64,000 bases of DNA from Trueperaceae bacterium (GTDB lineage: Bacteria > Deinococcota > Deinococci > Deinococcales > Trueperaceae), in contig CBDCDZ010000004.1 in assembly GCA_965215565.1 (NCBI GenBank), positions 3,648,001-3,712,000 on the forward strand. The letters run 5' to 3'. Of this stretch, positions 12,773 to 60,886 are shown piece by piece; within the stretch, counting starts at the first letter, position 1; each line of letters starts with the position of its first letter. Below the pieces are notes generated by a model. The model was not told the origin of the DNA and made no database searches. It was given only the letters and a program-made list of their open reading frames with translations. The translations under genes were made by a program, and so were the position numbers.

Positions 12773-13478
12773 TTAATAATCTTCATGGACAACGTGATTT
12801 TTCTTACTTTGAGTCTCAAGTGCGAGCTTCACCGCGCCCCCAACATGAGTTTGTAAGACGCGAACGCCGTGAGCCTGGAGCCGCTCCAAAACGCCCGTGT
12901 GTGGGTGCCCGTATCCATTTCTGCCGTAAGAAAGAACCGCCTGCTCGGGCTGCGCGGCCCTCAGGAGCGCGTCGGACGTTGAATGTTTCGAGCCGTGATG
13001 CGCCACCATTAAGATATCGACGTCGGGCACGAACAGCTCCCTTTCGACGGGGCTCGAGAGGTCCCCCAAAAAGAGCGCCTTAGTGCCTTTTACGTCCAGC
13101 ACAAAGGCCACCGAGTTGTCGTTGTCGCTCTCGTAAGGGACGGGCGGCGGGTTGAGAATCTCGAGGTCAGCCTCGCCTACGCTCAGCCTTTCGCCGCGCG
13201 TCACCTGCATCACCTTGACGCCCTTGCGCGCCGCAACCTCTAGGAGCGCGTCGAACACGGGTTTACCCGGTGCGGGTGCGCCGATGAGGAGCGTTTGCAC
13301 GGGCATGCCCTCTAATACACTGACGAGCCCTTCGATATGATCGGTGTCAGGGTGCGAGGCGACGACGAGTTCTAGTTCGTCCACCCCTTGCGCTCGCAGC
13401 GCAGGCAGCACCGTGCCCTTCCCCACGTCGAAATCGCTGAAGGGCGTCCCGCCCCCGTCCACTAAAATTTCGATGCGC
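12773..13478 (-). pseudogene. comEC: 3' portion (MBL/beta-lactamase domain) of competence protein ComEC/Rec2, cut by a transposon end
   Basis: R-IEILVDGGG...SHPDTDHIEG...NDNSV...LFLGD...HHGS...SYGRNGYGHP. The frame runs directly into the transposon terminus at 13479, and the DVGQGD motif and membrane domain are absent. Confidence 0.85.
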
Positions 13479-13545
13479 TGTCAGATACAATAATCTATGC
13501 GACTAAACAATAATCCTTGCGACTCTCACAATAATCTCTGCGACT
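13479..13545 (+). repeat. Transposon end: 8-bp terminus TGTCAGAT plus three TnsB-binding-type repeats
   Basis: ACAATAATCTATGCGACT (13487-13504), ACAATAATCCTTGCGACT (13507-13524), ACAATAATCTCTGCGACT (13528-13545). Same geometry as Tn7-family ends. Confidence 0.88.
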
Positions 13546-13562
13546 GACGTATACTCACCTGA

Positions 13563-15345
13563 GTGAGTGTCGTACCGCCTATCGACAAATTTGTTTTGGG
13601 GGACCAATTATACTTCCTCGACTGGATAGGCGGTGTGACGCACAATCCAGGAAAGTCCAGCGAGCCCCTCATGCAGGTATTCACGAGCCCGGTCATAACG
13701 AACAGCGGCGGCATGTCTTACGGAAAGCAGTTCGCTATGAACGTCGGCGTCGGTTTACTCCCTTACATGAAGATCGGCTCCCTCTGGTATGAAGGCAACC
13801 GTATCGGCCTGTTTCCTCTCCGCAAAGTCACCTTTAAGTTAAGAATCGCATCCGACAACCCCATCGTCTCGACGCTTCAGGAAGCTCTGGGAGATGAGCC
13901 CGGTGCGAGTAGGGGCGGGCGTACAGTACTCGGCACCGCTTTGTTCGACACGATAAGTCGAACGAACTGCTTGGTTTACCGTTATGACACGACGCGCAGA
14001 AAGAAGAGCATACTCAGTAGCATCATCTTCCCGGTCATGGAAATTGTCAGGTTCTACTACGCGACCGGGACGAGGCTTAGCAACGCCCTCTTCACGGGCG
14101 AGGTGCAAGGGGAGGACTTGTCGCGACTGTGCAGTGAGGGTTCGGGTCTCTATGACGACGTCGCCATCGTCAAGCTGAAGTCCGAATACGCCGACAGCTC
14201 TGCTTACATCATCGGCAGATGGCTGGGGTCGCCTCACGCCAGGGCGCAAGCGATTAAAATCTACCAGACTGTCCGCAAGGGAACCATCAACCGGCGGGCC
14301 GACCCTTCGAGCGATCTGCACGTGTCGCCGGAAGTCACCTTTCCCTTCCTCGGACCCACCGATCTGAGTGTCCAAGGCACTTACCTTACCCGAGAGAACG
14401 GCGAGCGACATTTCCTGGTCAGTCGTCTCCTACGCTGCACTGCACCTTTTCCCTACGAGGCGGTCACAGTCGAGCGTCCCCTCGGCAAGATCGAAGAGAC
14501 GTTAGAAGGAGAAGAGGGTAATCCCATCTACAGGCGACCCTTTACTCGGAAGCGCAAACCTAAAGGCAGAATCAAACATCACAACGAACCGAACCTCGGA
14601 CTCCGAACCCTGAGCATCGACCTTTACGAAGAGAACTTCCCCGACTTAGAGAACAAACCCCTCCACAAGACCTACGGGGAAGCCTATATCCACCGCACCA
14701 AGAAGCGGAAAGAGGGCGAGGAAGGGGACGATTTCTCGAGCGGCTCCGGCGTCCACGGCGGCTCGGGTCCTAGAGGTATCAGGCTCAACACCGATCCTGC
14801 GGACGAGCCTCCTAAAGCGCAGAAAAAGCGTGCCACGCCGGTGCAGTTGGCGTTCACTAAAGACGCGCTGGACACGCTCAGGGACGCATATAAAGTTCCC
14901 TATACGCTCCTCGATGCCGACGGTCAGGAACTATCAGAGGGGGAAGGATTCGCACTTCTCCCTAGCGAACTTCGGCTGCTGAACGACTGGGCGGAGTACG
15001 AGGTGGGTGAGGAACAACACGCGCCACGTCCTCATCGCCGAACTCGAGCACGAATCTGGGCTTTTCACCATCTTCGAGGTCGAGCGGCGACTGAGCGGCG
15101 AGAGCGGTCGCTACCGGATGCTCATCGCCCATCTGATCACGATGGGAAGTTTGCGGTGGAATGTCAAAGCGATGCTCCAGGTCTTTGCAGAGGAGCAAAG
15201 GGTGTTCCTACCCGAAAAGAAAGCGTTGCAGGCGCTCAAGCCCAAATATTTCAATCATAAGATCGGAGAGACTGCGCCGGAATTTGCCAAGAGAGTATTC
15301 GACTACATGGAGGCACTAGCGAAGCGATCCCGTAAAGAAGGGTGA
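13563..15345 (+). pseudogene. tnsE: TnsE-like target-selection protein, split by a +1 frameshift near 14980-15010
   Basis: IIFPVMEIVRFYY (cf. Tn7 TnsE HIPQLELARSLF), RWLGSP, FPFLGPTDLSVQG, FLVSRL. The second frame (15007-15345) supplies RHVLIAEL...FTIFEVE...NH...FAKRV, resembling the TnsE C-terminal domain. Confidence 0.68.
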
Positions 15346-24180: not shown

Positions 24181-25848
24181 TCAGTAATCTATATTCATAG
24201 CTGCACTATCGGCGATTTCGTCTGCTGCTAAAGATAGAGCGTGCCTAAGTGCTTCCTGATTTTCATTCTTGAGCAAGCTGAATCGCGATTGACTCTGTTC
24301 GGGCAAGAGGGTTACGCCCGCCTTTTGAAGAAGTCCTCTATACGCAGGATTAGCCACGAATCCTATCATGTTGGAATAATCGTGCTTATACTTTTCTATG
24401 AAATACATAAGCCTTTCGTAAACCCGCGCTTGAGCTGTTTTATCGCGTTTAGATAAGAGGAAGTCGTAATTCAAAACAGCGGGCTCTTTCACGTAACGCA
24501 GAGGAACAGGTCCGTAAAGCCCGGATAAGAAAACAATGTCGATATCGTTCTCTAGTCCCTGTAAACTTTTCACGACTCGCTTATATGACGATGAGTCGGT
24601 GTACGGTTTAGCCTGAGAACAGGTGAGAATTAGACAGATAGGTTTCTTGGCCTTAAAACGCCTTTTACGTATATCGAAGGCAGTAGGGTCATTTCTGACT
24701 GGCTTCACCTCCACTGCTTCCGGTAGAGGCTCGCCCTCAAGCAAGGCGCGGAGCTGGGCTCTTGGACGAGCTAGTTCAACGAGATAGTCTTCCAGTACGC
24801 CTTTCTCCCGAGCAGCAATTGCCTTATCAAGGATTTGCATATCCATTTCAAGATTGTGAAGTGCAGTCGCAGCATAAACGACACTCTTACGTCCCCGCTT
24901 AACCTCACCTTTTTTGGCTCGCATTACGAAAACATCTTCATGCACATCGCGCGAGTAGCAGACTTGACATGTACATGGATAGGACAAAAGTTCCCAAAGA
25001 CGTCGTTCTTTGTAATTGGGGGTGATGTATTTAAGTGAGCGAGCTTTCTGAATATAACCACTAGTGTCGAAAGTAGTCGCCCCTGCATGTAAGAGGAAAG
25101 GGACGAGAAGTCCGGTGACACCAAAAACATGCATCGGTAACTCTCCTGCAGCGCCACGTACAGCGCGGACATAACGGACGATCTCCTGCTGTCTCCCCGC
25201 CTTTCTTAACGGAACTATGGAACCTAGCCCTACCCCGTGAACGATCTGCATGAGATTTTCCTTGTCGAGACGTTCAAGCACCTCCTGCGTGAAGATGGCA
25301 GCTTGCTCGGGTGTATTCCCGTGAACAGGAACTACAAGATTTATATCTTTATCCGGTCTCTCAGAAAGAATTCTTGCGCAGTAAAGTGCATTTTGAAGTG
25401 TCTTGTTCAGTCGGTTACGCGACTCTTCTTCAGTTAATCCAGGCGGTATCGGGTAATCTAAAGACACAATCCTCGAAGCGCCTAAAGCTAGCTGGAGTTC
25501 GAGAATCTTTTCCTGCATGTTATGTTCAAAGAAGCCGTAGCGATCCAATCCAGCGGGTGGACCCTGCATGAACACGTAACCACCTGAGTCAGCTAAAATG
25601 TGTGCATGATAATCTAAGTCGAAATTGCCATTGTAGTGTTTACGCAGAGGTTTAGACAGCCACATCTCGAGTTGTTTTGGTAGTATGGCACCGTAGTTCA
25701 AAAAGTGTAGTGCTTGAACCATCACGGGTATATTACGCCTCAATAAACCTTGTTCCATGCCATGCAAGAGTTGCTTATACATGCCGCCGCCGTTTGGCGT
25801 TGTACCTGTCATCATAGCCGTAACTGGGTATAGGATAGAATTGTGCAC
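24181..25848 (-). CDS. tRNA-guanine transglycosylase (TGT/DpdA-like) fused to a C-terminal DUF5591-like domain
   Basis: DSGGY, LDYP, PVHG, MHVFG, FDTS, Zn site CTCQVC...HNL; C-terminus LTCSQAKPY...SGLYGPVP...YDF. Confidence 0.82.
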   Translation of the reverse strand: MHNSILYPVTAMMTGTTPNGGGMYKQLLHGMEQGLLRRNIPVMVQALHFLNYGAILPKQLEMWLSKPLRKHYNGNFDLDYHAHILADSGGYVFMQGPPAGLDRYGFFEHNMQEKILELQLALGASRIVSLDYPIPPGLTEEESRNRLNKTLQNALYCARILSERPDKDINLVVPVHGNTPEQAAIFTQEVLERLDKENLMQIVHGVGLGSIVPLRKAGRQQEIVRYVRAVRGAAGELPMHVFGVTGLLVPFLLHAGATTFDTSGYIQKARSLKYITPNYKERRLWELLSYPCTCQVCYSRDVHEDVFVMRAKKGEVKRGRKSVVYAATALHNLEMDMQILDKAIAAREKGVLEDYLVELARPRAQLRALLEGEPLPEAVEVKPVRNDPTAFDIRKRRFKAKKPICLILTCSQAKPYTDSSSYKRVVKSLQGLENDIDIVFLSGLYGPVPLRYVKEPAVLNYDFLLSKRDKTAQARVYERLMYFIEKYKHDYSNMIGFVANPAYRGLLQKAGVTLLPEQSQSRFSLLKNENQEALRHALSLAADEIADSAAMNIDY

Positions 25849-25888
25849 AGGAAGACCTTACCGTACGAAGAGCGATAAAGCAAGACCT

Positions 25889-26335
25889 TCAAGTAGGAAG
25901 CAGGAATTCGTACCGCAACATTTTGCTTATATTCCTATGCGGGTTATCTACGATAAGAACGGTTTCAGCGTTGCGGTAAAAGCTGCCCCAGAGGAAGTTT
26001 GCTGACCCCACTAGAGCGATTTCATCAGTGATCAAACCCTTGCTGTGCAAGTGAGGAACAATGTGGTGTTTATCAGGCGTAAAGCGCGATAAAAGTGCAT
26101 TGAGCCTCCGGTCCGGTTCTCTCGTATAGATTGAGGTTCGATGCCCCTGTCCTTGTAGATAAAGTAGCAAGGTGCTCAGTCGTTGCGGTCCCGATTTATT
26201 GACAGGATAAGGTAGCTGTAGGGGTAGATCGTCCATCCAAGGGCTGACAATTGCGATGTCACCCTCGCTACTCAACATAATCTGAGGAACCAACCACGGC
26301 AGCTTCTTAGAGGCTAAGAACACGGTTAGGTGCAC
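25889..26335 (-). CDS. Phospholipase D-like nuclease (DpdK/DrmC-like)
   Basis: IVSPWMDD; single HKD motif LHSKGLITD...GSANF...N.E. Confidence 0.82.
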   Translation of the reverse strand: MHLTVFLASKKLPWLVPQIMLSSEGDIAIVSPWMDDLPLQLPYPVNKSGPQRLSTLLLYLQGQGHRTSIYTREPDRRLNALLSRFTPDKHHIVPHLHSKGLITDEIALVGSANFLWGSFYRNAETVLIVDNPHRNISKMLRYEFLLPT

Positions 26336-29300
26336 CGCTCTCGAGAACCATCGGTAAGTTTTTCCCCTCTCTAGCCCTTTCGGAAAGTTCTTTGTTGCTC
26401 ATCTCTATTATCAGCCTCGATAGTATTGACTCAGCGAGTAACCTTGAAGGCTCCTCGTCACCGATCTGCTGAGTACCGACACAAACGGGGCAGCCATCAG
26501 TTTCTAAACAGGTGTATTGGAATGGCTCCCCACTCGCTCGTTGGTTGATCAACCGGGTAAGTTCGTTTGAAACTTCGACGAAAATATCCTCTGGTAGCGT
26601 ACTCTGGGGATCGGGTAGGTTGAGGCGTGCCACCGTACGCGTACGTAATAGTTGGGCGTCTATACCATCGCGCAATGCCTCTTCAGCTAAACCGACAGGG
26701 CATAGCACAACACGTAGCAGTTCTTGGTAAACCTGAAGTGCATCAGCCTCAAGTGCTTTCTGGAAAACTTCGATAAGACCCGCGCCCCCCTCAAAAACTT
26801 CCCACACCGAAACGTTATTGTCGCCGATCGCAGACTCTAAATCTTCACGGTGCACGCCGACGACACTTGCTACTGCCCGATGAAGCAGCTCTCGAGCGGT
26901 GGCAAGTGCCACTCCTCGGAGTTGCTGCGGCTGCGCTCGTCCCTCACTAAGCTCGTTGAGCAAGTCATCGAGCTGCCATCCAAGTGCTTGCGTGTCTATC
27001 GTATACACCATTGGCTCAAGGTAACGGACTTCAAAGCGGTCTGGATCGCCGCTAGCCCTGAAATACTCTGCGTCCGCGTCTCTATCGTTTGAGTTACTCT
27101 TCAGATAACGATGTGACTCAACGTCAGAACCTAAAACTCTGGTCCTCCCTTGTCCCTCAAATACACGCAGTCGCTCGCTAATACACGTTCCCGTATGATT
27201 TTCGAAACGCCTCTCTAAGTAGGGCTGGGCGTAGAGCTTTCGAAATTCAAGTTGCCCGCCACATTCACAAACCCGCTTACTAAGACTGTGAACCTTGTAG
27301 CATTGCTTACAAAATTTAACGACTTGGCGTCCTTGACGGTCCGTACGGACGCCGCGTAAAGGTACAATCTGAGGACGTACACCCCCTTCTACACTTAAAC
27401 CCTCAATGGGTAAACGCACCCTGACCCTGCTTCCGTCAACCCAATCAGGGTGGTGTTCCGTATCGAGGGTTGCCAAAGTCGTGTCTCCATAATGACGATA
27501 AGTCAGTCTATACGGTAAATAAAGACTCGCTAAGTTGGAAACTTGCTCCTCTATGTAGTCAGAGCTGCCGCTAGAGTAACGCTTTTCGAAACGCAAAGGC
27601 TTTACGGTTTGAAAGTAAGATGAGGGTAGGAGAGAGCTGATGGAGACCGGACAGTTGTTCTCTACGCAGGTGTGGCTAGGTTCGCTTACTGCGTCGACGC
27701 CAGCGTGTAAATAGTAAAGCGAACCTAGCGTTACTTTTATGTCTTGTGGAGACGATTGGAAGGACCACCCTTTATTCCAGTGCTCCTTTAACGTGAAAAA
27801 GAAGTTGTGGAGCCGCTCGTAGTCAGAGATGCTTCCTTCGCCTGTTCGTCTTAGGTTATAGAGGTGAGCCCTAAGGTTAGTAAGCAAGGTCACTACTTCT
27901 GCGAGATGCTCGGCACGTTCAGGTTCATCAACGAGAATCTGGCTTACTTGGCTGATAAGACTATTGGTAGTAAGACGCTGTGTCGGCTGTGCTCCTCCAG
28001 CGAGGTAGTTGTCGATCTGCTCTCGGAATGCATCTAAGTCATTCATCAACTCGGTGGGAAAAGCGCTTCGAAGTTGAGTCAAATGGCGTCTCAAATCGAG
28101 GATAGGTCCGGTTCTCTCTAATTCTCTATCAGCCCAGCCAATCAAAGCATCTTTGAATCCAGAAAGATCGAAGTAGCCTGCAAATCTGTCTCTAAAATTG
28201 TCAAAGTCTTCCTGATACTTAGCACTCAATGTTGGGCAGGCTTCGAGCTGGTCGAGGATGTAACGTGCTATGGCCTTAGGTGGAAAACTTTCGTTTTGTT
28301 GGTAGTACTTGGCATATTGACTACGGTCCCGCTCCAGTCTCTCGTGTAATTGTTGAATAACCGCATTGTCCGTATTGAGGGGGATGTCGAAAACGCCATT
28401 TAGTAACCGTTGACGTCTAAAAAGTGCGAAGTTATCCGGAGCGTCGTTACCCAATATAAGGATGCTATGACTTAGATCGCCTTGCTTTCGTCCAGCGCGT
28501 CCGCGCCTCTGAGTAAAACCTGCTAGAGAACGCGGTGGTCTGTATTGGACAACAGCTTTGATCTGTTCATTGTCCACGCCTACCTCCAGTGTAGGCGAAG
28601 CGACAAGAAGATTGGGACTAAGATTTTTACCCGTCTTCGATGTGACTTGAGCTACTGAGAGAGGCTCTTCACTAACTACTTCTGCTGGTTCATAGCAATC
28701 TTTGCCACCATGTATTCCTCTCCAGCACTCGCCCGCACTATAGATATCGCAGCGCATAGGTTCCTTGCGAGGGCAGGGTTCATTATTCCCATTTAACGGG
28801 TAAGAAATATCTTCGACTACCGTGCGGAATGCCCAAAGCCCTTGATTGTGTTCAGCGTCTCGAAGCTGATTAAAAAAGCGCCCCGTCTGATCGAGAGAAT
28901 CCGCAAAAATGATAACCTTCTCTTGAGGGGTCAAAAAAGCGTGCCCGAGTGCCATAGCGCACTGGATGAGTAAGGAAGACGGAGCAGGGCTTGACTCATC
29001 AGTTGGCGTCTGAAGCGTGACAAACCCTTCTATTCCTCCCAACTCTTGCTCTGCTTCGTAGGCACTTGAAAGAGCCTCGTGTGCTCGGACTCCCTGGTCA
29101 CTCCCGTAAAATAATCGGCTCGCGAAACGTATAGGGTCCGAAATGGTTGCGCTGGCAGCAATGAGCGTGAGTTCTTTGCCAACAAGTTTCTTCAGCCGAT
29201 TGATGAGCTGATGAACGTGGACGCCGTAAAGCGAATCGTACAGATGCGCCTCGTCGATAACAATTCCGCTGAGTCCTGTAAGGAACGGTTCAAACTCCGG

Positions 29301-30194
29301 CCGAAGGTAGAAGGAATCGAGCGACTCGGCTGTCGTTACCATTATCGGTGGGTTTGCCTTGATATGCCCTTCACGCGATATTGACACCGCAAAAGTTTTT
29401 TTGCAATCTGGGCACTCAAGTTCTCGGTAGGGTTGCTCTCCTTTTGGAAGGAGTCGCAATTTGACCTTCGCACCACAGACGGGACATTCTTCTAGCGATT
29501 GAAATTCTCCTGATTCGAAGAGGGGAGAGCCATCATCGTCATATTGATTATCGACCGTTAATTGGTCAGAACGCTTGACGGAGCCGAACTGAATTCCTAC
29601 CGGAATGACATGACCTTGCTGTCGCGCGAAATAGGCTGCGCTCAACACCCGCGCAAGTTGATCCTCAAGCAGGGCGATGCGAGGATAGACTAAAATGAAA
29701 CGCTGGGTGGGGTTCTTCAAAAGACTGTAGATAAGAGGAAGTACGAAAACTTCCGTTTTTCCGGCTCCCGTAGGTGCCGTGATGACGAGTCCAGAGCGAT
29801 TCTCCACTGATCTCAAAACTTCAGCCCAACCGTCGACCTGAAATCTACTAAATTCTGGGTACGGGCTCAGTTTGGCGACAGCTTCCTGTTCGGTCGTAGG
29901 AAAAGTGCTTACGCTGCGAATAGGTCTTGTGCGAGGTATGGCGTCAAAACGGAGGCGTCCAACAAGAACATTGCCGCTTTCGCTCGCTCCAAAGCGCTGT
30001 TTTACCGTCTCCAAAATCCGCAGTAGCTCAAGCGTTCGTGGCACCTTGACACTAGGGGAAAGGGCGACCATATGTGCATCTGTACTGATAGCATTAGAAC
30101 GCCGCGCCACAACCGCCGCATCTGGCGTTGTGTTGTTGCGATTTACTTCTGTGCTAATTCGCTCCAATTCTGCGAGTAGTTCAGGCAGCATCAA
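26307..30194 (-). CDS. DEAD/DEAH SF2 helicase with Zn fingers and C-terminal DUF1998-like domain (DpdJ-like)
   Basis: FQ Q-motif, APTGAGKT, DEAH, SAT, LEVGVD, QRRGRAGR; several CxxC pairs; C-terminal LLH...WEVFEGGAG...C..DGCPVC. Confidence 0.85.
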   Translation of the reverse strand: MMLPELLAELERISTEVNRNNTTPDAAVVARRSNAISTDAHMVALSPSVKVPRTLELLRILETVKQRFGASESGNVLVGRLRFDAIPRTRPIRSVSTFPTTEQEAVAKLSPYPEFSRFQVDGWAEVLRSVENRSGLVITAPTGAGKTEVFVLPLIYSLLKNPTQRFILVYPRIALLEDQLARVLSAAYFARQQGHVIPVGIQFGSVKRSDQLTVDNQYDDDGSPLFESGEFQSLEECPVCGAKVKLRLLPKGEQPYRELECPDCKKTFAVSISREGHIKANPPIMVTTAESLDSFYLRPEFEPFLTGLSGIVIDEAHLYDSLYGVHVHQLINRLKKLVGKELTLIAASATISDPIRFASRLFYGSDQGVRAHEALSSAYEAEQELGGIEGFVTLQTPTDESSPAPSSLLIQCAMALGHAFLTPQEKVIIFADSLDQTGRFFNQLRDAEHNQGLWAFRTVVEDISYPLNGNNEPCPRKEPMRCDIYSAGECWRGIHGGKDCYEPAEVVSEEPLSVAQVTSKTGKNLSPNLLVASPTLEVGVDNEQIKAVVQYRPPRSLAGFTQRRGRAGRKQGDLSHSILILGNDAPDNFALFRRQRLLNGVFDIPLNTDNAVIQQLHERLERDRSQYAKYYQQNESFPPKAIARYILDQLEACPTLSAKYQEDFDNFRDRFAGYFDLSGFKDALIGWADRELERTGPILDLRRHLTQLRSAFPTELMNDLDAFREQIDNYLAGGAQPTQRLTTNSLISQVSQILVDEPERAEHLAEVVTLLTNLRAHLYNLRRTGEGSISDYERLHNFFFTLKEHWNKGWSFQSSPQDIKVTLGSLYYLHAGVDAVSEPSHTCVENNCPVSISSLLPSSYFQTVKPLRFEKRYSSGSSDYIEEQVSNLASLYLPYRLTYRHYGDTTLATLDTEHHPDWVDGSRVRVRLPIEGLSVEGGVRPQIVPLRGVRTDRQGRQVVKFCKQCYKVHSLSKRVCECGGQLEFRKLYAQPYLERRFENHTGTCISERLRVFEGQGRTRVLGSDVESHRYLKSNSNDRDADAEYFRASGDPDRFEVRYLEPMVYTIDTQALGWQLDDLLNELSEGRAQPQQLRGVALATARELLHRAVASVVGVHREDLESAIGDNNVSVWEVFEGGAGLIEVFQKALEADALQVYQELLRVVLCPVGLAEEALRDGIDAQLLRTRTVARLNLPDPQSTLPEDIFVEVSNELTRLINQRASGEPFQYTCLETDGCPVCVGTQQIGDEEPSRLLAESILSRLIIEMSNKELSERAREGKNLPMVLESGAPNRVLSL

Positions 30195-30633
30195 CGTCGA
30201 CCTCTACTCAACTCTGTATTCAGTTGCTTCGAAGCGGTGCTCACTTCATCGGAAGTCTTTGACATTTTATTGAACTCCTCTAGCACTCCAGCGCGTTCGC
30301 TCTTTGCGCTCCCCAAGCAGAGATTGTGGAGAAATAGTCTGAGAAAGGTTACTCCACATTCCCTTTTCTATCTGCTAGCTCTTTCCCCTTCCTTCAGGAA
30401 CTCATCGGTAAAAATTCACAAGAACTAAATGGAAGCGTAACACGACGTAACGACCTGATGCCATAGTGGATTAAGGGCGTGAGGAACTTCACAACTACCG
30501 TTAGAAATGGCCCTAATCTTCCGCTGAACCAAAGGCATTACGCACAGCATCTTGAGACTAGCTTCTTATATTCGAAATAGGTTAGCGTTATGAAGCTTAC
30601 GGCGACTTCAAAGTTTGAGAGAGTGAGATAAGA

Positions 30634-31245
30634 GTGCGAAGAGACGTGTTGATAACGGTTTTAGTAGCCATCTATATCGCTACTGAGTTAGTTTCGAACG
30701 CCACAGCGGGCCGCCTCGTGCAGCTAGGCGCATTTGTCTTCCCTGGAGCGATTTTTCTCTACTCCCTTACCTTTACACTGCGAGATGCGGTGCATACAGC
30801 GGGCGGTTGGCGCGTCGCCAAAGCGCTCATTTGGGCTGGCTTCATCGCGAACGCTATTCTCGCGCTTTACGGGTTGTCCATTAACGCATTTCCTAAACCA
30901 GTCTGGTTCGATGACTCAGCTTACCAAGCAGTGTTCGGAACGACGGCAAGGGTAGTCGCCGCTTCTCTGGTTGCTTATCTCGCGTCCACCTGGCTCGACG
31001 CTCTCATCTTTGAACGTTTCAAGCGCTCGATAGTCAACCGCGTGCTTGCCTCAAATGTCGTTTCTACGTCTGTCGATTCTGTCCTCTTTATTACTATTGC
31101 ATTCGCCGGCACAGGTGCCCCGCTGCTCAACCTCATTGTCGGACAGATAGTCGTTAAGATGATCGTAAGCACCCTACTCATCCCTGTCGTATATTGGGTG
31201 CGGGACACTTTACGTGAACAAGGGTTGGCGATGGAGGGATACTAG
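30634..31245 (+). CDS. yhhQ: Queuosine-precursor (preQ0/preQ1) transporter, VUT family
   Basis: TM protein with F.L.D, R...ASL.AYL.S...D...F, R...SN.VS..VDS..F..IAF. Directly upstream of queC. Confidence 0.85.
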   Translation: MRRDVLITVLVAIYIATELVSNATAGRLVQLGAFVFPGAIFLYSLTFTLRDAVHTAGGWRVAKALIWAGFIANAILALYGLSINAFPKPVWFDDSAYQAVFGTTARVVAASLVAYLASTWLDALIFERFKRSIVNRVLASNVVSTSVDSVLFITIAFAGTGAPLLNLIVGQIVVKMIVSTLLIPVVYWVRDTLREQGLAMEGY

Positions 31246-31941
31246 ATGTCAAGAGCAGTCGTTCTACTCTCGGGTGGACTCGACTCCGCTACAGCAGCTG
31301 CACAGGCTATCGCAGACGGCTATGATCTCATGGCCCTTTCCTTCCGATATGGTCAACGTCACGAACGGGAACTCGAAGCTGCTAAAGCGGTAGCCGAAGC
31401 GCTGCACATTCAAGAGCACTTCGTTAGCGACGTCAACTTGGCACAGTGGGGTGGGTCGTCTCTCACCGATGAAGATATAGACGTGCCTACAGGAGGGAGC
31501 GACGCGAATGCCATCCCCTCGACCTACGTTCCCGGACGCAACACCGTCTTCATTGCGATTGCGCTCTCGCTCGCCGAGGCGAAAAACGCTGAAGCCATAT
31601 ACCTCGGTATCAACGCCGTGGACTACTCGGGTTATCCTGATTGTCGACCTGAGTACTTAGAAGCGTTCAAAAATCTCGCTGAGCTTTCGAGCAAAGCAGG
31701 ACTTGAAGGTAATGCGCCTAGGCTTGTTGCCCCACTCGTTATGGACTCGAAGGCAGACATCGTCAGGCGTGCCCTCAGGCTAGGTGTGCCCATCGAGAGT
31801 ACATGGTCCTGCTATCAAGGCATGGAGGAGCCGTGTGGAGTCTGCGATTCCTGTCGTATCCGTGATCAGGCTCTTATTAAAGCAGGGAAAGCAGACTTAG
31901 TCGGCTCCTTCAATTTATCTCGCGCTGTCCCGAGTTGCTAG
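31246..31941 (+). CDS. queC: 7-cyano-7-deazaguanine (preQ0) synthase
   Basis: [36 protein letters not shown]...CGVCDSC. Confidence 0.96.
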
Positions 31942-35905: not shown

Positions 35906-37120
35906 CTACTCGATGATTTCTAGCACGTCCTTAGGCTCAATCTTGCCCTTAAACCAGATCACCTTGGCGCGGGTCTTGCTCACGTCCACACCCGCACCCT
36001 CGAGGTTGAGCCGTTCGGAGACCGCCAAGACCAGGTCGTCCCTGCCCGACTTCTCCACCTGCATAAACTTTTTGCGCAGATACTCAGGACGCCAGTAGCC
36101 CACGATCTCGAAGAGAAAACTGCGTCCATCGGGGTGGACCAGGCGGAAGTCTGGGATCATCACACTGCCGGGGATGGGGACGAGGTCGACTTCGCGCTCC
36201 AAGCGCCACTCGGTCTGTTGGGTGTCCCAGCGCTTGGACAGGGCTTGCTCGAGGATGGAGTCGTAGACCTTCCCCTTCTTGTAGTGGGAGACCAAGCCAC
36301 TGTTGGGCTCGAGTGTATACCTCGCTTCTTCGGGCACACCGTCGTAGGTCTGCTTAGGATTCAAGACTGCCGTCATCTGCCAGCGGGTGACATGTAAAAG
36401 GGCGGGGAGGAACTTGGCCAAGTCCACACCATAGCGCGTGGAGGCTTTGAACAAACTATTCGGACCGTCCACTGTAATGGTGAAGCCGTGCTCAGGGTCG
36501 CCCTCAATATAGGCGAGTAAGCGAAAGAGCTTCAGGTAGCGGAAGAGCTGCTTGTACTCGCCGGGGTCGTTGCGATACGCCGTTAGGACGAGCTCGCTGG
36601 CGCGGTAGAGGACGCCCTGCGCTTGCGAGAGGTTGTAGCGGTGGATGAGGGCGTCAGGGGTAGGGGACTCGAAGCTCACCATGATCTGGTTCTCCGCTAG
36701 GTCGGCATAGAGTCCGGCTCTGACTTGACTGGGTTCGACGTGGGTCTCGAGTTCTCGGCTCAGGGCGTCGGCGACTTCGCTGTGAATAGCCGTCTCCACC
36801 GCTTCGTCCGGTGCTTGCCTTGCAGCCAAAGCGAAGGCCCGCTCCCTAAGCTCTTCCGGTTCTAAGGGGCTGACCGTCTCGAACTCAGCAAAGCCGGAGG
36901 TAAGGAGATGGGCCAACCCTCGTTTGACCCGGTAGTCCGTCTCTTCCCCCTCGAGCAGTTGCAACTCGGTATCGAGCACGTGACGCGGCTTATTCAAGCA
37001 AGCACAGAAGACCTGAATGAGTTCTTGCGCCGTCGCCAGGTTCCCTTTACTCAGCTCGAGCCACTTGGGGACGATCTCCTCACCGTTGTAGCGGTGCATC
37101 AACAGCTCGCTCGGCAGCAC
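35906..37120 (-). CDS. DUF790 (Bax1-like) endonuclease
   Basis: MLPSELL start, YNLSQAQG.LY, DGP.SLF....RYG..LA.FLP, C-terminal IPDF...EIVGYW.PEYL..K nuclease motif. Confidence 0.88.
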   Translation of the reverse strand: MLPSELLMHRYNGEEIVPKWLELSKGNLATAQELIQVFCACLNKPRHVLDTELQLLEGEETDYRVKRGLAHLLTSGFAEFETVSPLEPEELRERAFALAARQAPDEAVETAIHSEVADALSRELETHVEPSQVRAGLYADLAENQIMVSFESPTPDALIHRYNLSQAQGVLYRASELVLTAYRNDPGEYKQLFRYLKLFRLLAYIEGDPEHGFTITVDGPNSLFKASTRYGVDLAKFLPALLHVTRWQMTAVLNPKQTYDGVPEEARYTLEPNSGLVSHYKKGKVYDSILEQALSKRWDTQQTEWRLEREVDLVPIPGSVMIPDFRLVHPDGRSFLFEIVGYWRPEYLRKKFMQVEKSGRDDLVLAVSERLNLEGAGVDVSKTRAKVIWFKGKIEPKDVLEIIE

Positions 37121-38565
37121 TACAGATCCTCGAAGCTCAGACTATCTTGGATTGGCACGTGCTCCATCACTGCTTTAGTCGGCTTCTTGAGGGGTTGCCC
37201 TTCACCCCGCCTGCGCCTTGAGACCCCCTCCTCGCTGGTGTTCTCGGCGATGACCTCATATAAGACCGCGAGCTTGCCCTCACCCTTGCGCAGGATTCTA
37301 CCTAAGCGCTGCACGTACTCCCGTGTCGTGCCCGTCCCCGACATCACGATGGCGACGTTGGCTTCGGGTACGTCAACGCCTTCGTTCAGAACCCGCGAGG
37401 TCACGATACGCGGGTAAACCCCTTCTTTGAACTTCACTAAGGTGCTGTGCCGCTCTTTAACCTTCGTCTGATGCGTAATCGCAGGAATCAGATAGGTCTG
37501 CGACACCTTGTAGACCATCGCGTTGTCGTCTGTAAAGACAAGTACCCTATCGTGTTCGTGCCGTTGCAGCAGCTCAAGCAACACCCTCAGCTTCCCTTCA
37601 GTTCCAAACGCAATCGAACGTGCCTCGCGGTGCGCCAACATCGCCGCCCGTCCCTCTTTACTCCTCGCACTCTCCCTGACGAAGCGTTGCCAGCCCTCGA
37701 GCGTCCCGAGACGGATACCGCGTCCTTGCAGGAAGTTGTTCCTCAGCTCCATATATGCGTCGTAACGCTTGCGTTCGTCGTCCGTCAGCTCGACCTTGAT
37801 CTGCTCGATGCGGTGCTCGGCTAGGGCGTGACCGGAGAGTTCTTGCGGTGTCTTGCTGTGAACAACGGGGCCGACGAGCGTTTTTAGGTCCTCATGCTTA
37901 CCGTCACCACGCTCTAAGGTCGCGGAGAGCCCTAAGCGGTAGGGTGCGAGTGAATACTCGGCAATCACTCGGGTGAAGTCCGCCGGTAGGTGGTGACACT
38001 CGTCGAAGATGAGTAAGCCGTAGCGACTACCGAGCTTCTCTGCGTAGATGGCGGCGCTGTCATACGTCGCCACTAGAATCGGACTCTCGTCTTTACTGCC
38101 GCCACCAAGCAATCCTATCTCCGTCTCCGGGAAGGCGACCTCGAGCCCGGCGTACCACTGGTGCATGAGGTCCAACGTCGGCACAACGATGAGCGTACTC
38201 CTGGGCGTGGCTTGCATTGCCAAGTAAGCGACGAAGGTCTTGCCTGCGCCTGTAGGTAGCTCAGCGATACCTCGGCGTCCTGCCCTGAGCCAGGCGTCTA
38301 AGGCATCTTGCTGGTGCTCGTATGGAGCGTGTTCGCTGATTAGCTCGAGATTAAGCTCGCTCCAGCCCTTCGCCTTGTCGTTCACCTCTATCCCATCGCG
38401 CTTCATCATTTCCAAAAAAGCACGGTACTGCATAGCGGGCAGGCGGAACTTCTCGATGCGGTCGTCCCAGGTGACAAAGTCGAGCCAGGCTCTGCCCTTG
38501 GGCGGGGGATGCAGGATCAAGGTGCCGCGGTCAAAGGTCAGGGTAGAGGTACGGGTGCGTGCCAC
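37120..38565 (-). CDS. XPB/Rad25-like SF2 helicase
   Basis: FDRGTL, PTGAGKT, DECHH, LGLSAT.ER.D, LNEGVDVP, QRLGRILR. Confidence 0.9.
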   Translation of the reverse strand: MARTRTSTLTFDRGTLILHPPPKGRAWLDFVTWDDRIEKFRLPAMQYRAFLEMMKRDGIEVNDKAKGWSELNLELISEHAPYEHQQDALDAWLRAGRRGIAELPTGAGKTFVAYLAMQATPRSTLIVVPTLDLMHQWYAGLEVAFPETEIGLLGGGSKDESPILVATYDSAAIYAEKLGSRYGLLIFDECHHLPADFTRVIAEYSLAPYRLGLSATLERGDGKHEDLKTLVGPVVHSKTPQELSGHALAEHRIEQIKVELTDDERKRYDAYMELRNNFLQGRGIRLGTLEGWQRFVRESARSKEGRAAMLAHREARSIAFGTEGKLRVLLELLQRHEHDRVLVFTDDNAMVYKVSQTYLIPAITHQTKVKERHSTLVKFKEGVYPRIVTSRVLNEGVDVPEANVAIVMSGTGTTREYVQRLGRILRKGEGKLAVLYEVIAENTSEEGVSRRRRGEGQPLKKPTKAVMEHVPIQDSLSFEDL

Positions 38566-42981: not shown

Positions 42982-43166
42982 GGTTCGGGCTCGAAGCGGA
43001 TGCCCCTGTCTCCTGGATAGGGTTCGCGGTGGTCGTGCTCGCCGTCTAAAATTGCATTCGGTATCCGCTCGGGAAAGGCGGCGCAGCGAGCGGAGCCGAA
43101 GTGATGAGTGCAGCGGTTACACAGCGGACTGTAGAAGGTCATGCCCTCCTCGACAATCCTGCTCAT
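42978..43166 (-). CDS. Small Cys-containing protein (C..C.H...C.AFP..IP..I..G..DH..P..GD.GI.FE)
   Basis: Coupled by an ATGA overlap to the MBL gene; compact metal-binding-like motif. Confidence 0.65.
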
Positions 43167-44194
43167 GGCAGCGACTCACACGCCACGCCGTCGTTGTTGC
43201 CGTCAAGTCGGTGAGGGTCGCCCGCCCCAGCAGCCTCATAGAACGCTTGCGCCTCAGCTTGGCTCGAGAAGTCCCCACAGTCCCTATCCGGTCCGCTCGG
43301 GTCGTAGGTGAGGCCGCTCGAGGTGGATGTGCTTGGAGCTGAGCTGGTAGCGCTCGGCGCATCAGGCTGAGGCTGCACCTGCTGTACGGGTGACGCCGCG
43401 CTCACTTGATAGGTTCCATCCTCGTTCGCCACGACAACGACCGTCCCTTGCAAATCAGTGCGGTAGATATCAGCGTTCACTGCACTATATAGCCTGAGCG
43501 CCCTTTCTGCCGGGTGATTGTAGGAGTTGTCCAAGCCTGCCGAGATAACCACTGTCTCCGGCTTGAACCGGCTCATCGAAAGCGGCGTGTCTCCGTTCTC
43601 ACTCCCGTGGTGGCTGGCTTTGTACACATCTACGTCCTCGAGCAATTCGGGCACGTTCTCAACCCACCACGCGAACTGCGCCCGCTCCGCGTCACCCGTG
43701 AGCGCGAGCTCGAACGCCCCGTAGGTGAGGACAAGTCCTACCGAGTTGTCGTTGTTACCGAGCGAAGGAATGCCAGGCGGCGGCAAGACTTGTAACGACG
43801 CCTCCCCTAAGCCGATGCGCCGTGCCGTCGGCGGCACCTTGGCGATACCTAGCTCGTTGAGTGCGGCGTCTAAGTCTCTGTAGGCGGCGCTCCCGTAGTC
43901 GAAGCCGTTGTCCAGGAACGCCCTCGGCTGGTACGCCCGCACCACCGCCTCCAAGCCGCCGATGTGGTCGAAGTCGGGGTGGCTGGCGATGACCAAGTCG
44001 AGTGACTTGACCCCGACATCTTGGAGGTACTCGAGTACCTGCGTCTCCCTACGTCCGCCATCATAGAGAACGTTCCTACCGTCGTGGGTGCGGATCAGCA
44101 CGCTGTCCCCTTGCCCGACATCAACGAAGTGGATTTCGAGTTGGGCGGACGCGACGCTCAGCAGGAGCGCCAGGAGGACGGCGAGCCGTTTCAT
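43163..44194 (-). CDS. Secreted ComEC/Rec2-like MBL-fold hydrolase with C-terminal excalibur Ca-binding domain
   Basis: Signal peptide; [41 protein letters not shown]...[15 protein letters not shown]. Confidence 0.9.
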
Positions 44195-51731: not shown

Positions 51732-51773
51732 ACGGTATATCGCTCTAGCCGAACTTTCCACCACGAACAGCGG

Positions 51774-52073
51774 CTACTCCATCTCGGACTTGAACACGCG
51801 CCGTTTGTTTCGCTTCAGCGAGCGCGTTAGCTCCTCTTCGGTAGGGGTTCGCATCAACTCCTCTACAGGCGTTTTCAGAACCGCAGCCAGTTTGAGCAGC
51901 GTGTCCAAGGTCGGGTTGAACTTACCCCGGCCACCCTCGAACTCCTGATAGCGCCTGAGCGATATCTCGGAGCGCTCGGCTACGTCATCTTGGCGCAGCC
52001 GCCGTTTAAGCCGTATCTGCCGCAGCCGCCAGCGTATAACCCGTTTGTAAGCGTCGTTGACATCGTCGGGCAT
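51774..52073 (-). CDS. XRE-family HTH regulator
   Basis: LRQIR....LRQ.DVAE.SEIS.R.YQ.FE.G...NPTL.TL.KLA..L. Confidence 0.85.
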   Translation of the reverse strand: MPDDVNDAYKRVIRWRLRQIRLKRRLRQDDVAERSEISLRRYQEFEGGRGKFNPTLDTLLKLAAVLKTPVEELMRTPTEEELTRSLKRNKRRVFKSEME

Positions 52074-52151
52074 CTGCCCATCATGGCGAGCCCTCCTCCA
52101 TCTTTGTACGCCCTTATAGTGCGTGTTGTAGAGTGGGGCAGGTCATGACAC

Positions 52152-52649
52152 ATGGGAGGTTTTATGACGCGACCTATTCGGTTTTCGATTCTATTCATGT
52201 TGCTCGTCGGTTGTGCTCCGGTGCTCGAGGTCTTAGAGGGAGAAAGCCAGAGCCAAGCCGAGGTTCTCTGGGCCGCTCAGGTCAGCCGCGTGGAGCGCTA
52301 CGCCGGGCAGTACCAGGGCGAGCAGGGTAGCGCCACCGTGCAGGACGGGCGGGTGCTGGAGCTGGAACTCTCAAACCGGGCCTTTGGTGGCAGTGCTCGC
52401 TTCAGCGACAGTAGCCTAGACAGCCCACCCATGCGCGTCTCCTACAGCGGAGGCGGCTTCTTCGAGGGGCAGGCTACAGCGACCTTCGAAGGTGCAGGCT
52501 TCTCGAACTACGTCTTCTTCATAGGCGAAGCTGAGCCGAATTTGGTGGCGGAAGACGGGCTCGTTACGGGTTCCTTGCGCTTCACCGGGTCGGACGATAT
52601 AGGTCAGGTCATGGATGTCGTGGTCGAGAACATCCGGGTGCCTTACTGA
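52152..52649 (+). CDS. Hypothetical lipoprotein
   Basis: Lipobox LVGC. The start may be the next Met (MTRPIR), after a GGAGG RBS. Confidence 0.65.
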   Translation: MGGFMTRPIRFSILFMLLVGCAPVLEVLEGESQSQAEVLWAAQVSRVERYAGQYQGEQGSATVQDGRVLELELSNRAFGGSARFSDSSLDSPPMRVSYSGGGFFEGQATATFEGAGFSNYVFFIGEAEPNLVAEDGLVTGSLRFTGSDDIGQVMDVVVENIRVPY

Positions 52650-52708
52650 AGGACGAGAGAAGCCAGTCTTTCGAGGTCTTTAGGGAACGACGAAACCATT
52701 CACCTGTC

Positions 52709-53425
52709 ATGGGAGGACATGTGACCCGACACTCATATCTACCGCTGTTTTTTGCGCTCGCTTTATGCTTACTTTCATCTTTTGCCTCTGCCCAACTCGA
52801 GCTGACTACCCGCTTGACCCCTTGGCCCCCCGAGGGCTGGCCCGCGAGCACTGAGGGAGAAGTGCACGCCGTCGCCGTAGCGGATGCCACCCTGGAGGAC
52901 TACAGCGAGGAGAACCTCACGACTGTGTTCTCCTTCCCCGTGAGCGAGACAGGCGAGGTGACTTACCGCCTGCCCGAGGAGTTACCGAGGAACGCCAGAC
53001 GCTTCTACCAGGAGGCGAGCTTAGACGACTTCCAACTCTGCCCTGAGGTCGCTCCCTCCTTGTCACCGCCGGGTGCCCAGATGGTCCTGCTCAAACTCGC
53101 CCTCTACGCCGATGGGCAGTTCTGGGGCATTGTAGACCTCACTGCCGAGCAGGGCGGTCTCTTCGATTATGAGTTGCGCACCCTGCTCGGGCTCCTCTAC
53201 GCACCTGAGCCCTTTCGGGTGGCGGGCAGCGGCTTCTGCGCGGGCGAGGGGTCGCAGGTGACGACCGACCTGGACTTACAAGCGGGGCTCAATTTACTCG
53301 AGGTCTCGGGATCGGCCAGCTTAGCGGGCGGAGAGATGCTCCTTACAACGACCGAGACGTTGGACCTGCCGCAGACGCCGATTGGGATAGATGTCGGTGG
53401 TGGGGTTAGTGGCGGTGCGCCTTAG
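52709..53425 (+). CDS. Hypothetical secreted protein
   Basis: Signal peptide ending ASA. Confidence 0.62.
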   Translation: MGGHVTRHSYLPLFFALALCLLSSFASAQLELTTRLTPWPPEGWPASTEGEVHAVAVADATLEDYSEENLTTVFSFPVSETGEVTYRLPEELPRNARRFYQEASLDDFQLCPEVAPSLSPPGAQMVLLKLALYADGQFWGIVDLTAEQGGLFDYELRTLLGLLYAPEPFRVAGSGFCAGEGSQVTTDLDLQAGLNLLEVSGSASLAGGEMLLTTTETLDLPQTPIGIDVGGGVSGGAP

Positions 53426-53451
53426 CGCAGCGTCGCCGAGGGGAGGAGCTT

Positions 53452-54000
53452 GTGCCGAGTCAGCTTCAGAATCACCTGAGCATCCACGTCGCGAGCGAGG
53501 GGGCAAGGCAGGGCGTTTCCGAACGCTTGAAGCAACTCGACTTCGACGTGCCGGTAAGCCTCGTGTTGGATGACCGGCCCGGCTACGCCTTAAAGGTATT
53601 GAGCGCGCTCGGGCGACCTTTACCCGTCTTGCTCATCACCGCCAACCGCTCACCTCACTACCTCTTGGACCTGCTCGAGCACGAGCCGCAGGGGTTGTTA
53701 GTCACCTCGAACCTTCCTCCGGCTCGAGCTTTAGCTTTTTACCTCTCCCGCGTCGCCATCGGCGAGCACTTCTATGAGGGTCCCACACCCAGCAAAACGC
53801 CTTTGACGCCGAGAGAACGCGAGGTATTGAGGCGAACTATGTACGGGGAGAGCGTCGAGACGTTGGCCCGGTCGCTCGGCATCATCCCCTACACAGCAGG
53901 AGAGCATCTGCGGCATATCAGGGAGAAGCTCGGGGTAGAGCGCAACGCCGAACTCGTCCTAGCCTACTTCGCCGGGGACACGGCGCAGCTCGCGGTATGA
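53452..54000 (+). CDS. LuxR-type HTH regulator with degenerate receiver-like N-terminus
   Basis: LTPREREVL....G......A..LGI...T...H...I..KLGV....EL. Confidence 0.8.
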   Translation: MPSQLQNHLSIHVASEGARQGVSERLKQLDFDVPVSLVLDDRPGYALKVLSALGRPLPVLLITANRSPHYLLDLLEHEPQGLLVTSNLPPARALAFYLSRVAIGEHFYEGPTPSKTPLTPREREVLRRTMYGESVETLARSLGIIPYTAGEHLRHIREKLGVERNAELVLAYFAGDTAQLAV

Positions 54001-54019
54001 GGGGCGTCGCGGAGGGCAG

Positions 54020-54310
54020 ATGAATAGGGCGACCCGCAGTAGAGAGGTGCAGGAGTACCGCCTGGACGAGTTGGAGCGCGAGCAAGACCGGCTCGCTAAA
54101 CAGCTCTACCGCATGGCTCTGCGCCATGAAGACGTGCGGCAGGAGCTGAAAGACAGCCGCAAAGAGACGAAAGAGCATTTCGATAACTTAGGGGACTTCC
54201 TGCACAGCCGCTTCTTCTGGTTGATGCTGGCGCTCCTCGGCGGGCTTTGCATCTTAGGCATCTTATTCGTGGACTTCAGGATGGACCTGGCGCAACTGCT
54301 AGGTCCATGA
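54020..54310 (+). CDS. Hypothetical coiled-coil protein with a C-terminal TM helix
   Basis: GGAGG RBS; heptad-rich N-terminus and hydrophobic tail. Confidence 0.6.
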   Translation: MNRATRSREVQEYRLDELEREQDRLAKQLYRMALRHEDVRQELKDSRKETKEHFDNLGDFLHSRFFWLMLALLGGLCILGILFVDFRMDLAQLLGP

Positions 54311-59886: not shown

Positions 59887-60042
59887 TGTCTTTCCCTCCT
59901 CAGTCCTCGAATTTCGTCGGTATGACGGCGCGCTTGGCACTGCCAAGCGCGCATAGTCTATCTGCGTTTAGTGGTGAAAGCTGAAAGAATCGGGGTGGAG
60001 AATGAGTAAGTTTCTCCATGCGGCTCACGCTGGTTTAAGAGA

Positions 60043-60189
60043 TCATCTCCCACGCGTGAGTGTTTTACCGCCGATCTGACAACCTCCAGTGGACCTAGCC
60101 GAGCAAGTACCACTTTGTGTGCTTCTGAACAGCAAAGGGCTGGGCGCGGTAGTACGCGAAACGTTCTGCAGCGACAATACTTTTCTCAT
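60043..60189 (-). CDS. lanA: Class III lanthipeptide precursor (48 aa, below the ORF-track cutoff)
   Basis: AGGAG RBS; MRKVLSLQNVSRTTAPSPLLFR-STQSGTC-SARSTGGC-QIGGKTLTRGR, with a VLSLQ leader motif and two SxxSx(2-3)C motifs. Confidence 0.88.
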   Translation of the reverse strand: MRKVLSLQNVSRTTAPSPLLFRSTQSGTCSARSTGGCQIGGKTLTRGR

Positions 60190-60394: not shown

Positions 60395-60883
60395 TTAACC
60401 TTGTTTCGTAACACGCGCTACCCCAAAGACCTCTACCCACCCCTCCTTCACCGCCTGCATCCCCATGAGCTTCTCCGGCTCCTCGCTGACGACCATCAGG
60501 ACAGCATTCTCCTCCCTAAGTCTCTCTTTGAGGGTTCTCACTCTACGGGCTACGATGACCCTGCCGTACTTGCCATGCCCGCAGAGTAAGTAATACTTCT
60601 TGCCTTCGGATGAACACAAGCTAATGAGCGAAGGACCCTCCTTCTGTATATAGGTCCAGCCTCGAGCCTCGAGCATTTCTCGCGCTCTGCGCCTGATGAC
60701 ATGTCCAGCAGCGGCGCTAGATGTGGAGTACCCTTGATTTACGCCGAGTGCACTTCTGCCTCTCGTTGTGAGCAAGACCAACTCACCCGAGGAGCTGTCC
60801 AGAGTCGTGAGGTAGCCTCTGCCGATCAAACGCTTCAAATCGACGACGCGCCTCGCTCGCGATATCCATACGGTCCGCACCAT
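60395..60883 (-). CDS. Hypothetical basic protein immediately downstream of tniQ
   Basis: Starts 3 nt after the tniQ stop; the N-terminal L..RGYL......V.LT..G pattern is winged-helix-like. Confidence 0.6.
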   Translation of the reverse strand: MVRTVWISRARRVVDLKRLIGRGYLTTLDSSSGELVLLTTRGRSALGVNQGYSTSSAAAGHVIRRRAREMLEARGWTYIQKEGPSLISLCSSEGKKYYLLCGHGKYGRVIVARRVRTLKERLREENAVLMVVSEEPEKLMGMQAVKEGWVEVFGVARVTKQG

Positions 60884-60886
60884 GCT

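Follow-up and report, generated by a model that had tools for sequence, protein, structure and literature searches.

A 52-kb Tn7-like element in comEC of a Trueperaceae bacterium and its sister element in comM

Tn7 transposes by cut and paste through TnsAB, TnsC couples TnsAB to a target selector, and TnsE serves a second, untargeted plasmid pathway. The selector TnsD reads the glmS codons beside the right end of Tn7. Among described relatives, Tn6022/AbaR elements combine TnsABC and TniQ with TnsF and a left-end TnsE, and their att site lies in comM (PMC10293859, PMC11014353). A type I-B1 CAST with a comEC-targeting guide RNA inactivates comEC (PMC9881144, Fig. 8). Other elements also interrupt competence genes: Tsy is found in comM (PMC10293859) and comEC is broken by insertion sequences in Piscirickettsia (PMC12955456). 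A 5-bp target-site duplication has been called characteristic of all Tn7 relatives (PMC11406308).

In the searchable literature, comEC targeting appears once and is RNA-guided (PMC9881144). Among the matches listed by our searches of it were no protein-guided comEC targeting, no Tn7-like elements in comM of Deinococcota and no 4-bp Tn7 target site; the supplements of PMC9881144, PMC10293859 and PMC8649781 may list such cases. The main text of PMC8649781, in its searchable portion, mentions neither comM nor competence.

Ends, target duplication and the two halves of comEC

The DNA analysed here (the window) is a stretch of 64,000 nucleotides, positions 3648001-3712000 of contig C4 in a genome of 4.49 Mb. 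Positions past its end are given as extended coordinates, i.e. the C4 position minus 3648000. A sequence-only reading of the window had placed a Tn7-like end against comEC and a tnsB-tnsC-tniQ core about 47 kb away, and had proposed a single element of more than 50 kb in a Deinococcota-type genome, whose other end should be sought past position 64000. These proposals were borne out. The left end (13479..13545, + strand) consists of TGTCAGAT at 13479-13486 and three 18-bp TnsB-type sites at 13487, 13507 and 13528, with starts 20 and 21 bp apart, and the core was found at about 60.9-64.8 kb. The cognate inverted end and the 5' part of comEC are present 1.6 kb outside the window, beyond tnsB and tnsA. 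This right end (extended 65476-65598) carries four 18-bp sites in inverted orientation and a terminal TGTCAGAT, the array ending at extended coordinate 65598. With both ends found, the element measures 52,120 bp. Allowing up to two mismatches, the 18-bp repeat occurs seven times in the whole 4.49-Mb genome, i.e. the three left and four inverted copies; 0.01 matches are expected by chance in the window and none of 100 shuffles reached three. The termini TG(T)...(A)CA, the asymmetric arrays of TnsB sites (three left, four right) and the 8-bp terminal segment make up near-perfect ends. The right junction is spanned by read contigs of runs X1 and X2, which come from one sample, probably the source of the assembly, and are thus not independent.

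The predicted 5-bp duplicate TGCGC did not hold. The element is flanked by TGCGC before TGT on the left and by GCGCC after ACA on the right. Excising the element plus 4 bases gives VRLPGR-IEILVDGGG, and comEC then matches the intact genes of both congeners in frame and length; excising it plus 5 bases gives a stop. Since only 4 bp restores the congener frame and length, the duplication is GCGC, with its left copy at 13475..13478 (from junction comparison with the congeners) and its right copy at extended 65599-65602. GCGC is palindromic, and readings of 2 bp or 0 bp with longer ends lead to the same empty site; the 4-bp reading keeps the TGT...ACA termini. Both junctions were read for nine elements, of which three, all in comEC, have a 4-bp duplication and six a 5-bp one; 4 bp is thus found in three of four comEC insertions versus none of five insertions elsewhere. 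Because three of the nine have 4 bp, the 5-bp rule is not absolute, and these duplications depart from what was stated for the whole Tn7 family.

The comEC frame that encodes the MBL domain adjoins the left end. This 3' part (12773..13474, - strand; Pfam Lactamase_B, TIGR00361 positions 468-663) encodes the metallo-beta-lactamase-fold nuclease domain without its first two strands and with HxDxDH present. The 5' part (extended 65599-67173, - strand) encodes the DUF4131 OB fold, the Competence domain and DVGQGD. The latter motif ends 27 bp before the element, which places the cut nine codons past it, and the 5' frame runs four codons into the element before a stop. The neighbouring comEA (extended 67158-67658) is intact. 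The sequence-only reading spoke of a knocked-out uptake channel: comEC is indeed split, but the OB-fold and Competence (channel) domains are still coded and only the nuclease domain is severed. The 5' part differs at 6 of 233 conserved columns versus 7-10 in two intact congeners, and the 3' part at 2 of 114 versus 3. As neither half has decayed, the insertion looks recent.

In Legionella, the catalytic residues of the ComEC nuclease domain are needed for transformation and mutants lose it; some competent species are without this domain (PMC12455585). In D. radiodurans, deletion of comEC-comEA abolishes transformation and a second ComEC homologue does not compensate (PMC7314969). The insertion would likely block natural transformation by severing the nuclease domain. 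A benefit of such a block to the element, which the sequence-only reading saw in protection from curing by incoming DNA, is plausible, with two counterpoints: comM is already interrupted by another element in this genome, and under a current model insertion in comEC or another full-block gene would put an element at a strong disadvantage (PMC11441513).

Transposition genes, the sister element and cargo

From the right end inward, the gene order is tnsA, tnsB, tnsC and tniQ, with a TnsE-like gene alone at the left end. In the assembly, a 5-bp gap shifts the frame of tnsA (extended 64797-65448, - strand; Pfam TnsA N and C); both read alleles fill this gap. The tnsB gene (62917..64000, with its start at extended 64788, - strand) encodes 623 aa with DDE motifs present, and tnsC (61996..62916, - strand) a TniB-type AAA+ ATPase with Walker A at 71 and Walker B at 155. 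The tniQ gene (60395..61993, - strand), which encodes an extra C-terminal domain, is split in the assembly into 368 + 162 aa by two opposite 1-bp indels. In the read contigs of X1 and X2, both indels needed for a continuous tniQ frame are present, and the tnsA frame is open too. The open-frame TniQ runs on into the 162-aa ORF, as in the sister element described below (539 aa) and in four other full-length homologues (530-539 aa).

The TnsE-like gene (13563..15345, + strand, with one frameshift near 15000 in the assembly) is assigned by position and homologues. The latter are 24-38% identical, and one has the UniRef name 'TnsE C-terminal domain-containing'; homologues also occupy the left ends of related elements and, in the canonical Tn7 element of genome G077, the position immediately behind tnsD. 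The profile match is weak (TnsE_C, E=0.068 for one of ten rows), and a PDB sequence search with the protein gave nothing relevant.

Neither sister has a TnsF ORF after tniQ, and no tyrosine-recombinase Pfam match was obtained among the 52 proteins scanned. Moreover, no cas genes, CRISPR array or spacer-like match were found in the element, the only cross-matches being of helicases to Cas3 models. CRISPR guidance is ruled out by the lack of both array and spacer-like match, and any targeting must therefore be protein-guided. The TnsD DNA-binding domain PF15978 is absent from the sister's full-length TniQ protein and present in the G077 and G131 elements described below. In a structure model of the sister's protein, the C-terminal part (pLDDT about 80) consists of a small helical/hairpin unit and, behind it, an alpha/beta unit. 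Foldseek gave no match for this domain at E<=0.001, the weak rows being TniQ structures and XisH-type nuclease folds; the model offers a lead that it may have a winged-helix/nuclease fold. Proteins that correspond to the domain alone (31-39% identity) are encoded within conjugation-like operons at all three loci opened, which belong to three genomes of the host's family (L075:6357-6884, L076:6163-6822, L082:6521-7081; 175-219 aa, no Pfam matches). The operon neighbours were named by eye (VirB3/4/9/10- and relaxase-like), and the three scanned had no Pfam match.

The sister, a Tn7-like element of 46.3 kb, lies inside comM of the same genome (G000:C4:2978269-3024607) with a 5-bp duplication. Its TnsB, TnsC and TniQ are 55%, 57% and 58% identical to those of the comEC element, and it has the same left-end TnsE-like gene, a related MBL cargo gene, an intact 539-aa TniQ fusion and no operonic TnsF. 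This gene content makes it a candidate for a TnsF-free comM pathway. SoFic-like and UvrD-like genes are also part of its cargo, as is one that encodes a protein of 3129 aa. The target flanks of the two sisters have no common motif beyond chance, the best 20-mer matches being reached by 24-90% of random stretches. For this reason the comEC site is not a comM look-alike, and that candidate explanation was ruled out. A third, distant Tn7-like core lies in the same genome beside genes that were named by eye as restriction-type (G000:C4 about 1548900-1558000, L025).

In a TniQ tree of 30 rows, the comEC element nests within the fusion clade (97/100); its branch measures 0.40, that of the sister 0.095. 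In the C-terminal domain of its TniQ, 17 of 76 columns conserved in the clade are changed; the number is 4-6 of about 80 in six of the seven other members, and even higher (33 of 80) in the remaining one, P0015. A conserved three-residue motif of the TniQ middle domain is also replaced. As read from the sequences, this divergence would fit both a change of specificity and relaxed selection.

No relative with more than 55% TnsB identity was found in the genomes or the protein library searched (best 54-55%), and scans for relatives in JGI metagenomes and IMG/VR were blank. Run X3, which belongs to another study, contains 86-99% identical pieces together with the intact comEC of a relative, and none of its listed contigs runs across an element end. 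In X2, two tnsA alleles with 10 differences in 178 bases (depth 8 and 10.3) join one right-end/comEC contig of depth 17.7. This reflects either a repeated insertion at the identical base or recombination within a single inherited insertion. Allele variation occurs in patches of tniQ (about 60850-61360) and tnsA (extended 65170-65350, L063) that are common to X1, X2 and X3, and likely results from recombination among circulating variants. In X1 and X2, tnsB and tnsC are uniform; seven of 13 listed tniQ variants are silent and six change a residue.

The cargo of the comEC element includes a block at 24181..31941, with lower GC (47-53%), that encodes a TGT/ArcS-like protein, a DpdK-like PLD protein, a DpdJ-like helicase, a queuosine-precursor transporter (VUT) and QueC. 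These genes, whose Dpd scores are below the NCBIfam cut-offs, could possibly form an atypical 7-deazaguanine DNA-modification defence system. An XPB-like helicase and a Bax1-like nuclease (DUF790) are encoded at 35906..38565 (- strand). A stand-alone ComEC-like MBL protein (43163..44194, - strand), with an apparent signal peptide (by eye) and an Excalibur domain, is 59% identical to one in the comM element. That it rescues ComEC is unlikely, since such paralogues are common and the second homologue of D. radiodurans does not compensate (PMC7314969). A block at 51771..54294 (+ strand) is 86% DNA-identical to the comM element, which suggests either recent cargo exchange or shared ancestry. Furthermore, a class III lanthipeptide cluster (55529..60189, - strand) with a LanKC above cut-off and an ABC exporter lies directly behind tniQ and includes a 48-aa Ser/Thr/Cys-rich precursor candidate (60043-60189).

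Insertions in competence genes across Deinococcota

Of 364 Deinococcota genomes surveyed with a TnsA profile, 55 had matches, 73 in total. Upstream DNA was inspected at 70 loci plus a few further ones, at least seven of them with less than 1 kb upstream. Ten sites are in comM (three positions), two in comEC (the present element and that of G078), one in comF, one in comEA and three after pilC, the rest being scattered or unplaced; these counts are lower bounds, because canonical Tn7-type TnsA (G077, G131) was missed. Of the nine members of a related clade in which a comM site recurs, five lie at scattered other sites. Our survey of comEC 3' parts is also a lower bound; related genomes are not independent, and the Deinococcota and Deinococcaceae labels of the surveyed groups were read from sequences.

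The three other Tn7-family insertions in comEC of Deinococcota are all at other codons than that of the host's element. The G078 element, with both ends confirmed, lies 48 codons downstream, after the HxDxDH motif, in opposite orientation and with a 5-bp duplication. G077 and G131 carry TnsD-type Tn7 elements of 28-29 kb in the comEC channel domain (G077:C68:76655-105518 and G131:C1:1109368-1137577, approximate; L225-L228), 2 bp apart in the comEC of two Deinococcaceae and both with 4-bp duplications. This pair is a real, small comEC-homing lineage, unrelated to the host's element, and provides the best evidence here for a dedicated comEC site. According to the TniQ tree, the four comEC insertions represent three unrelated selector lineages at three sites. 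Since the lineages are unrelated and the sites differ, the other insertions do not vouch for the host's element. Taken with the published guide-RNA case (PMC9881144), the G077/G131 pair and the G078 lineage show that comEC is workable as a target.

In Deinococcaceae, 122 of 125 genomes had a comEC 3' match (40 weaker matches are unlisted). The 21 short or cut frames comprise three Tn7-like insertions, four integrase/prophage-type islands, four breaks without assigned cause, five with frameshifts only and five at contig ends or gaps. In the host's family, 120 of 127 other genomes matched, a tally that counts the unpublished G035 as one intact row; nine of about 21 short rows were fetched and the rest judged from coordinates. 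One member of the family, G360, has comEC split just before DVGQGD, without a Tn7 end. No second insertion at the host's comEC codon was found among the comEC 3' matches of the 127 family genomes or the 125 Deinococcaceae. A GTDB-wide scan (DVGQGD, 12-42 bases and an end motif), which can detect a single type of site motif at the ends and may miss other ends, gave one match, within a RelA-type ORF (by eye) and due to chance.

Several further insertions were observed in or near competence genes. Integrase/prophage-type islands occupy several codons of comEC in Deinococcaceae (L189/L216, L208/L215, L209/L222, L223/L224), and that of G068 lies 3-4 codons from the site of the host's element. In G113 (C1, L152/L174), comF contains a Tn7-like element that is flanked by a 5-bp duplication and has a TnsE-like gene at its left end; in this genome, foreign DNA also cuts comEC short close to the 3' end of the gene. 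Locus L234 (G180:C102) shows a Tn7-like core followed by cas6e-, cas8e- (Pfam Cse1), cas11- and cas7e-like ORFs, named by eye save Cse1. Its right end apparently truncates comEA, and its gene content makes it a candidate type I-E CAST aimed at a competence gene, on a contig that ends before any array. At L117, L127 and L133, tnsA follows pilC (T2SSF), and in G005 a TGT lies just past the stop codon; these elements possibly use a non-disruptive att site.

Possible routes into comEC and comparison with known systems

The TniQ fusion of the comEC element likely descends from a comM-targeting selector: the closest relative whose site is known is the sister in comM, and this TniQ nests in that clade. 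Homing to comEC is likely since a complete element lies in comEC, its sister in comM, and unrelated Tn7-type elements in comEC elsewhere. Targeting of comEC by the host's lineage, which the sequence-only reading had proposed, is inferred; the searches above found neither a second insertion at the codon nor a close relative with a mapped site. Our preferred reading, to which we give slightly better than even chances, is that a TniQ-fusion selector of comM ancestry changed its target to comEC, where it recognises conserved codons next to the right end. The putative winged-helix/nuclease-fold domain at the C-terminus of TniQ would read the DVGQGD stretch, 27-45 bp from the right end, and the comEC-bound fusion would load TnsC. 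Loss of the nuclease domain would then stop DNA uptake and the element would persist longer, as incoming empty-site DNA could not recombine it out. In favour of targeting, comEC represents 2.3 kb of 4.49 Mb (0.05%) and a blind hit would be rare, but the finding was picked for its site. The missing recurrence at the codon, a 4-bp duplication off the family norm and the scattered sites in the related clade speak against it.

The missing recurrence also favours the strongest rival, which we consider appreciably less probable though far from negligible: a one-off untargeted insertion by the TnsE pathway or basal TnsABC, the true site being comM or another one. The insertion would have been kept neutrally, or because uptake-less lineages lose islands more slowly. 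A TnsE-like gene is present, and the TnsE of Tn6022 gives random insertions on plasmids (PMC11014353). Moreover, scattered sites are common in related clades, and comEC is often broken at many positions, as the 21 short-frame candidates in Deinococcaceae indicate. Against this rival, with a target of 0.05% of the genome and four of 73 TnsA matches in comEC, comF or comEA, very strong enrichment by selection alone would be needed, and the divergence of the selector is concentrated in the candidate DNA-reading part of TniQ.

It is improbable that the C-terminal domain of TniQ instead steers the element to conjugating DNA, comEC and comM insertions then arising through the TniQ core or a pathway linked to incoming single-stranded DNA. 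The stand-alone homologues that three genomes of the host's family have in conjugation-like operons point this way, as does the fact that elements at the same comM position in other genera are without the fusion domain; but a plasmid pathway would already be covered by TnsE, and an Atlas match to Replic_Relax (0.82) is a lead only. Finally, a decayed relic or an assembly artefact at the junction is very hard to credit and largely refuted. The frameshifts of tnsA, tniQ and the TnsE-like gene in the assembly would speak for it; against it, read contigs span the right junction with open tnsA and tniQ frames, both comEC halves are undecayed and the ends are near-perfect. The element is complete and likely both recent and still functional.

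A broader version of the preferred reading is tentative and would sooner fail than hold. It supposes a new kind of selector in a Deinococcota Tn7-like clade, namely a TniQ with a winged-helix/nuclease-fold domain from conjugation operons, which exchanged comM for comEC as its target. Competence genes in general, with three positions each in comM and comEC and further sites in comF and comEA, would then be programmed sites that protein- and RNA-guided Tn7 lineages have reached repeatedly, and comEC insertions would tend to 4-bp duplications. That Tn7-like elements inactivate competence in a programmed way is established for comM; a comEC site under protein guidance, if true, would extend this to a complete uptake block, which the current model disfavours (PMC11441513). 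Furthermore, the two sisters lie in different competence genes of a single genome and their selectors are 58% identical; they provide a pair for mapping how TniQ changes target, a basic question for programmable transposons.

Among known systems, Tn6022/AbaR elements resemble the comEC element in their separate TnsA, TniB-type TnsC, TniQ, lone left-end TnsE-like gene and disruption of a transformation gene, and the sister also lies in comM. Unlike them, the comEC element has no TnsF, its TniQ is fused to a different C-terminal domain, its site is comEC and its duplication is 4 bp. The type I-B1 CAST is likewise Tn7-like and inactivates comEC, whereas the present element has no cas genes, array or spacer-like match. 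Tsy and the insertion sequences also cause loss of transformation by insertion; their recombinases differ, and the insertion sequence sites are scattered and not programmed. The G077/G131 elements share with the host's element the gene comEC and the 4-bp duplication, but differ in TnsA/B/C subfamily (TnsB 21-29% identical), in their site about 300 codons upstream in the channel domain and in having the right end on the 3' side. Prototype Tn7, with TnsD at glmS, shares with the comEC element the end anatomy and the conserved coding sequence beside the right end; unlike prototype Tn7 and the G077/G131 elements, the sister's full-length protein has no PF15978 domain.
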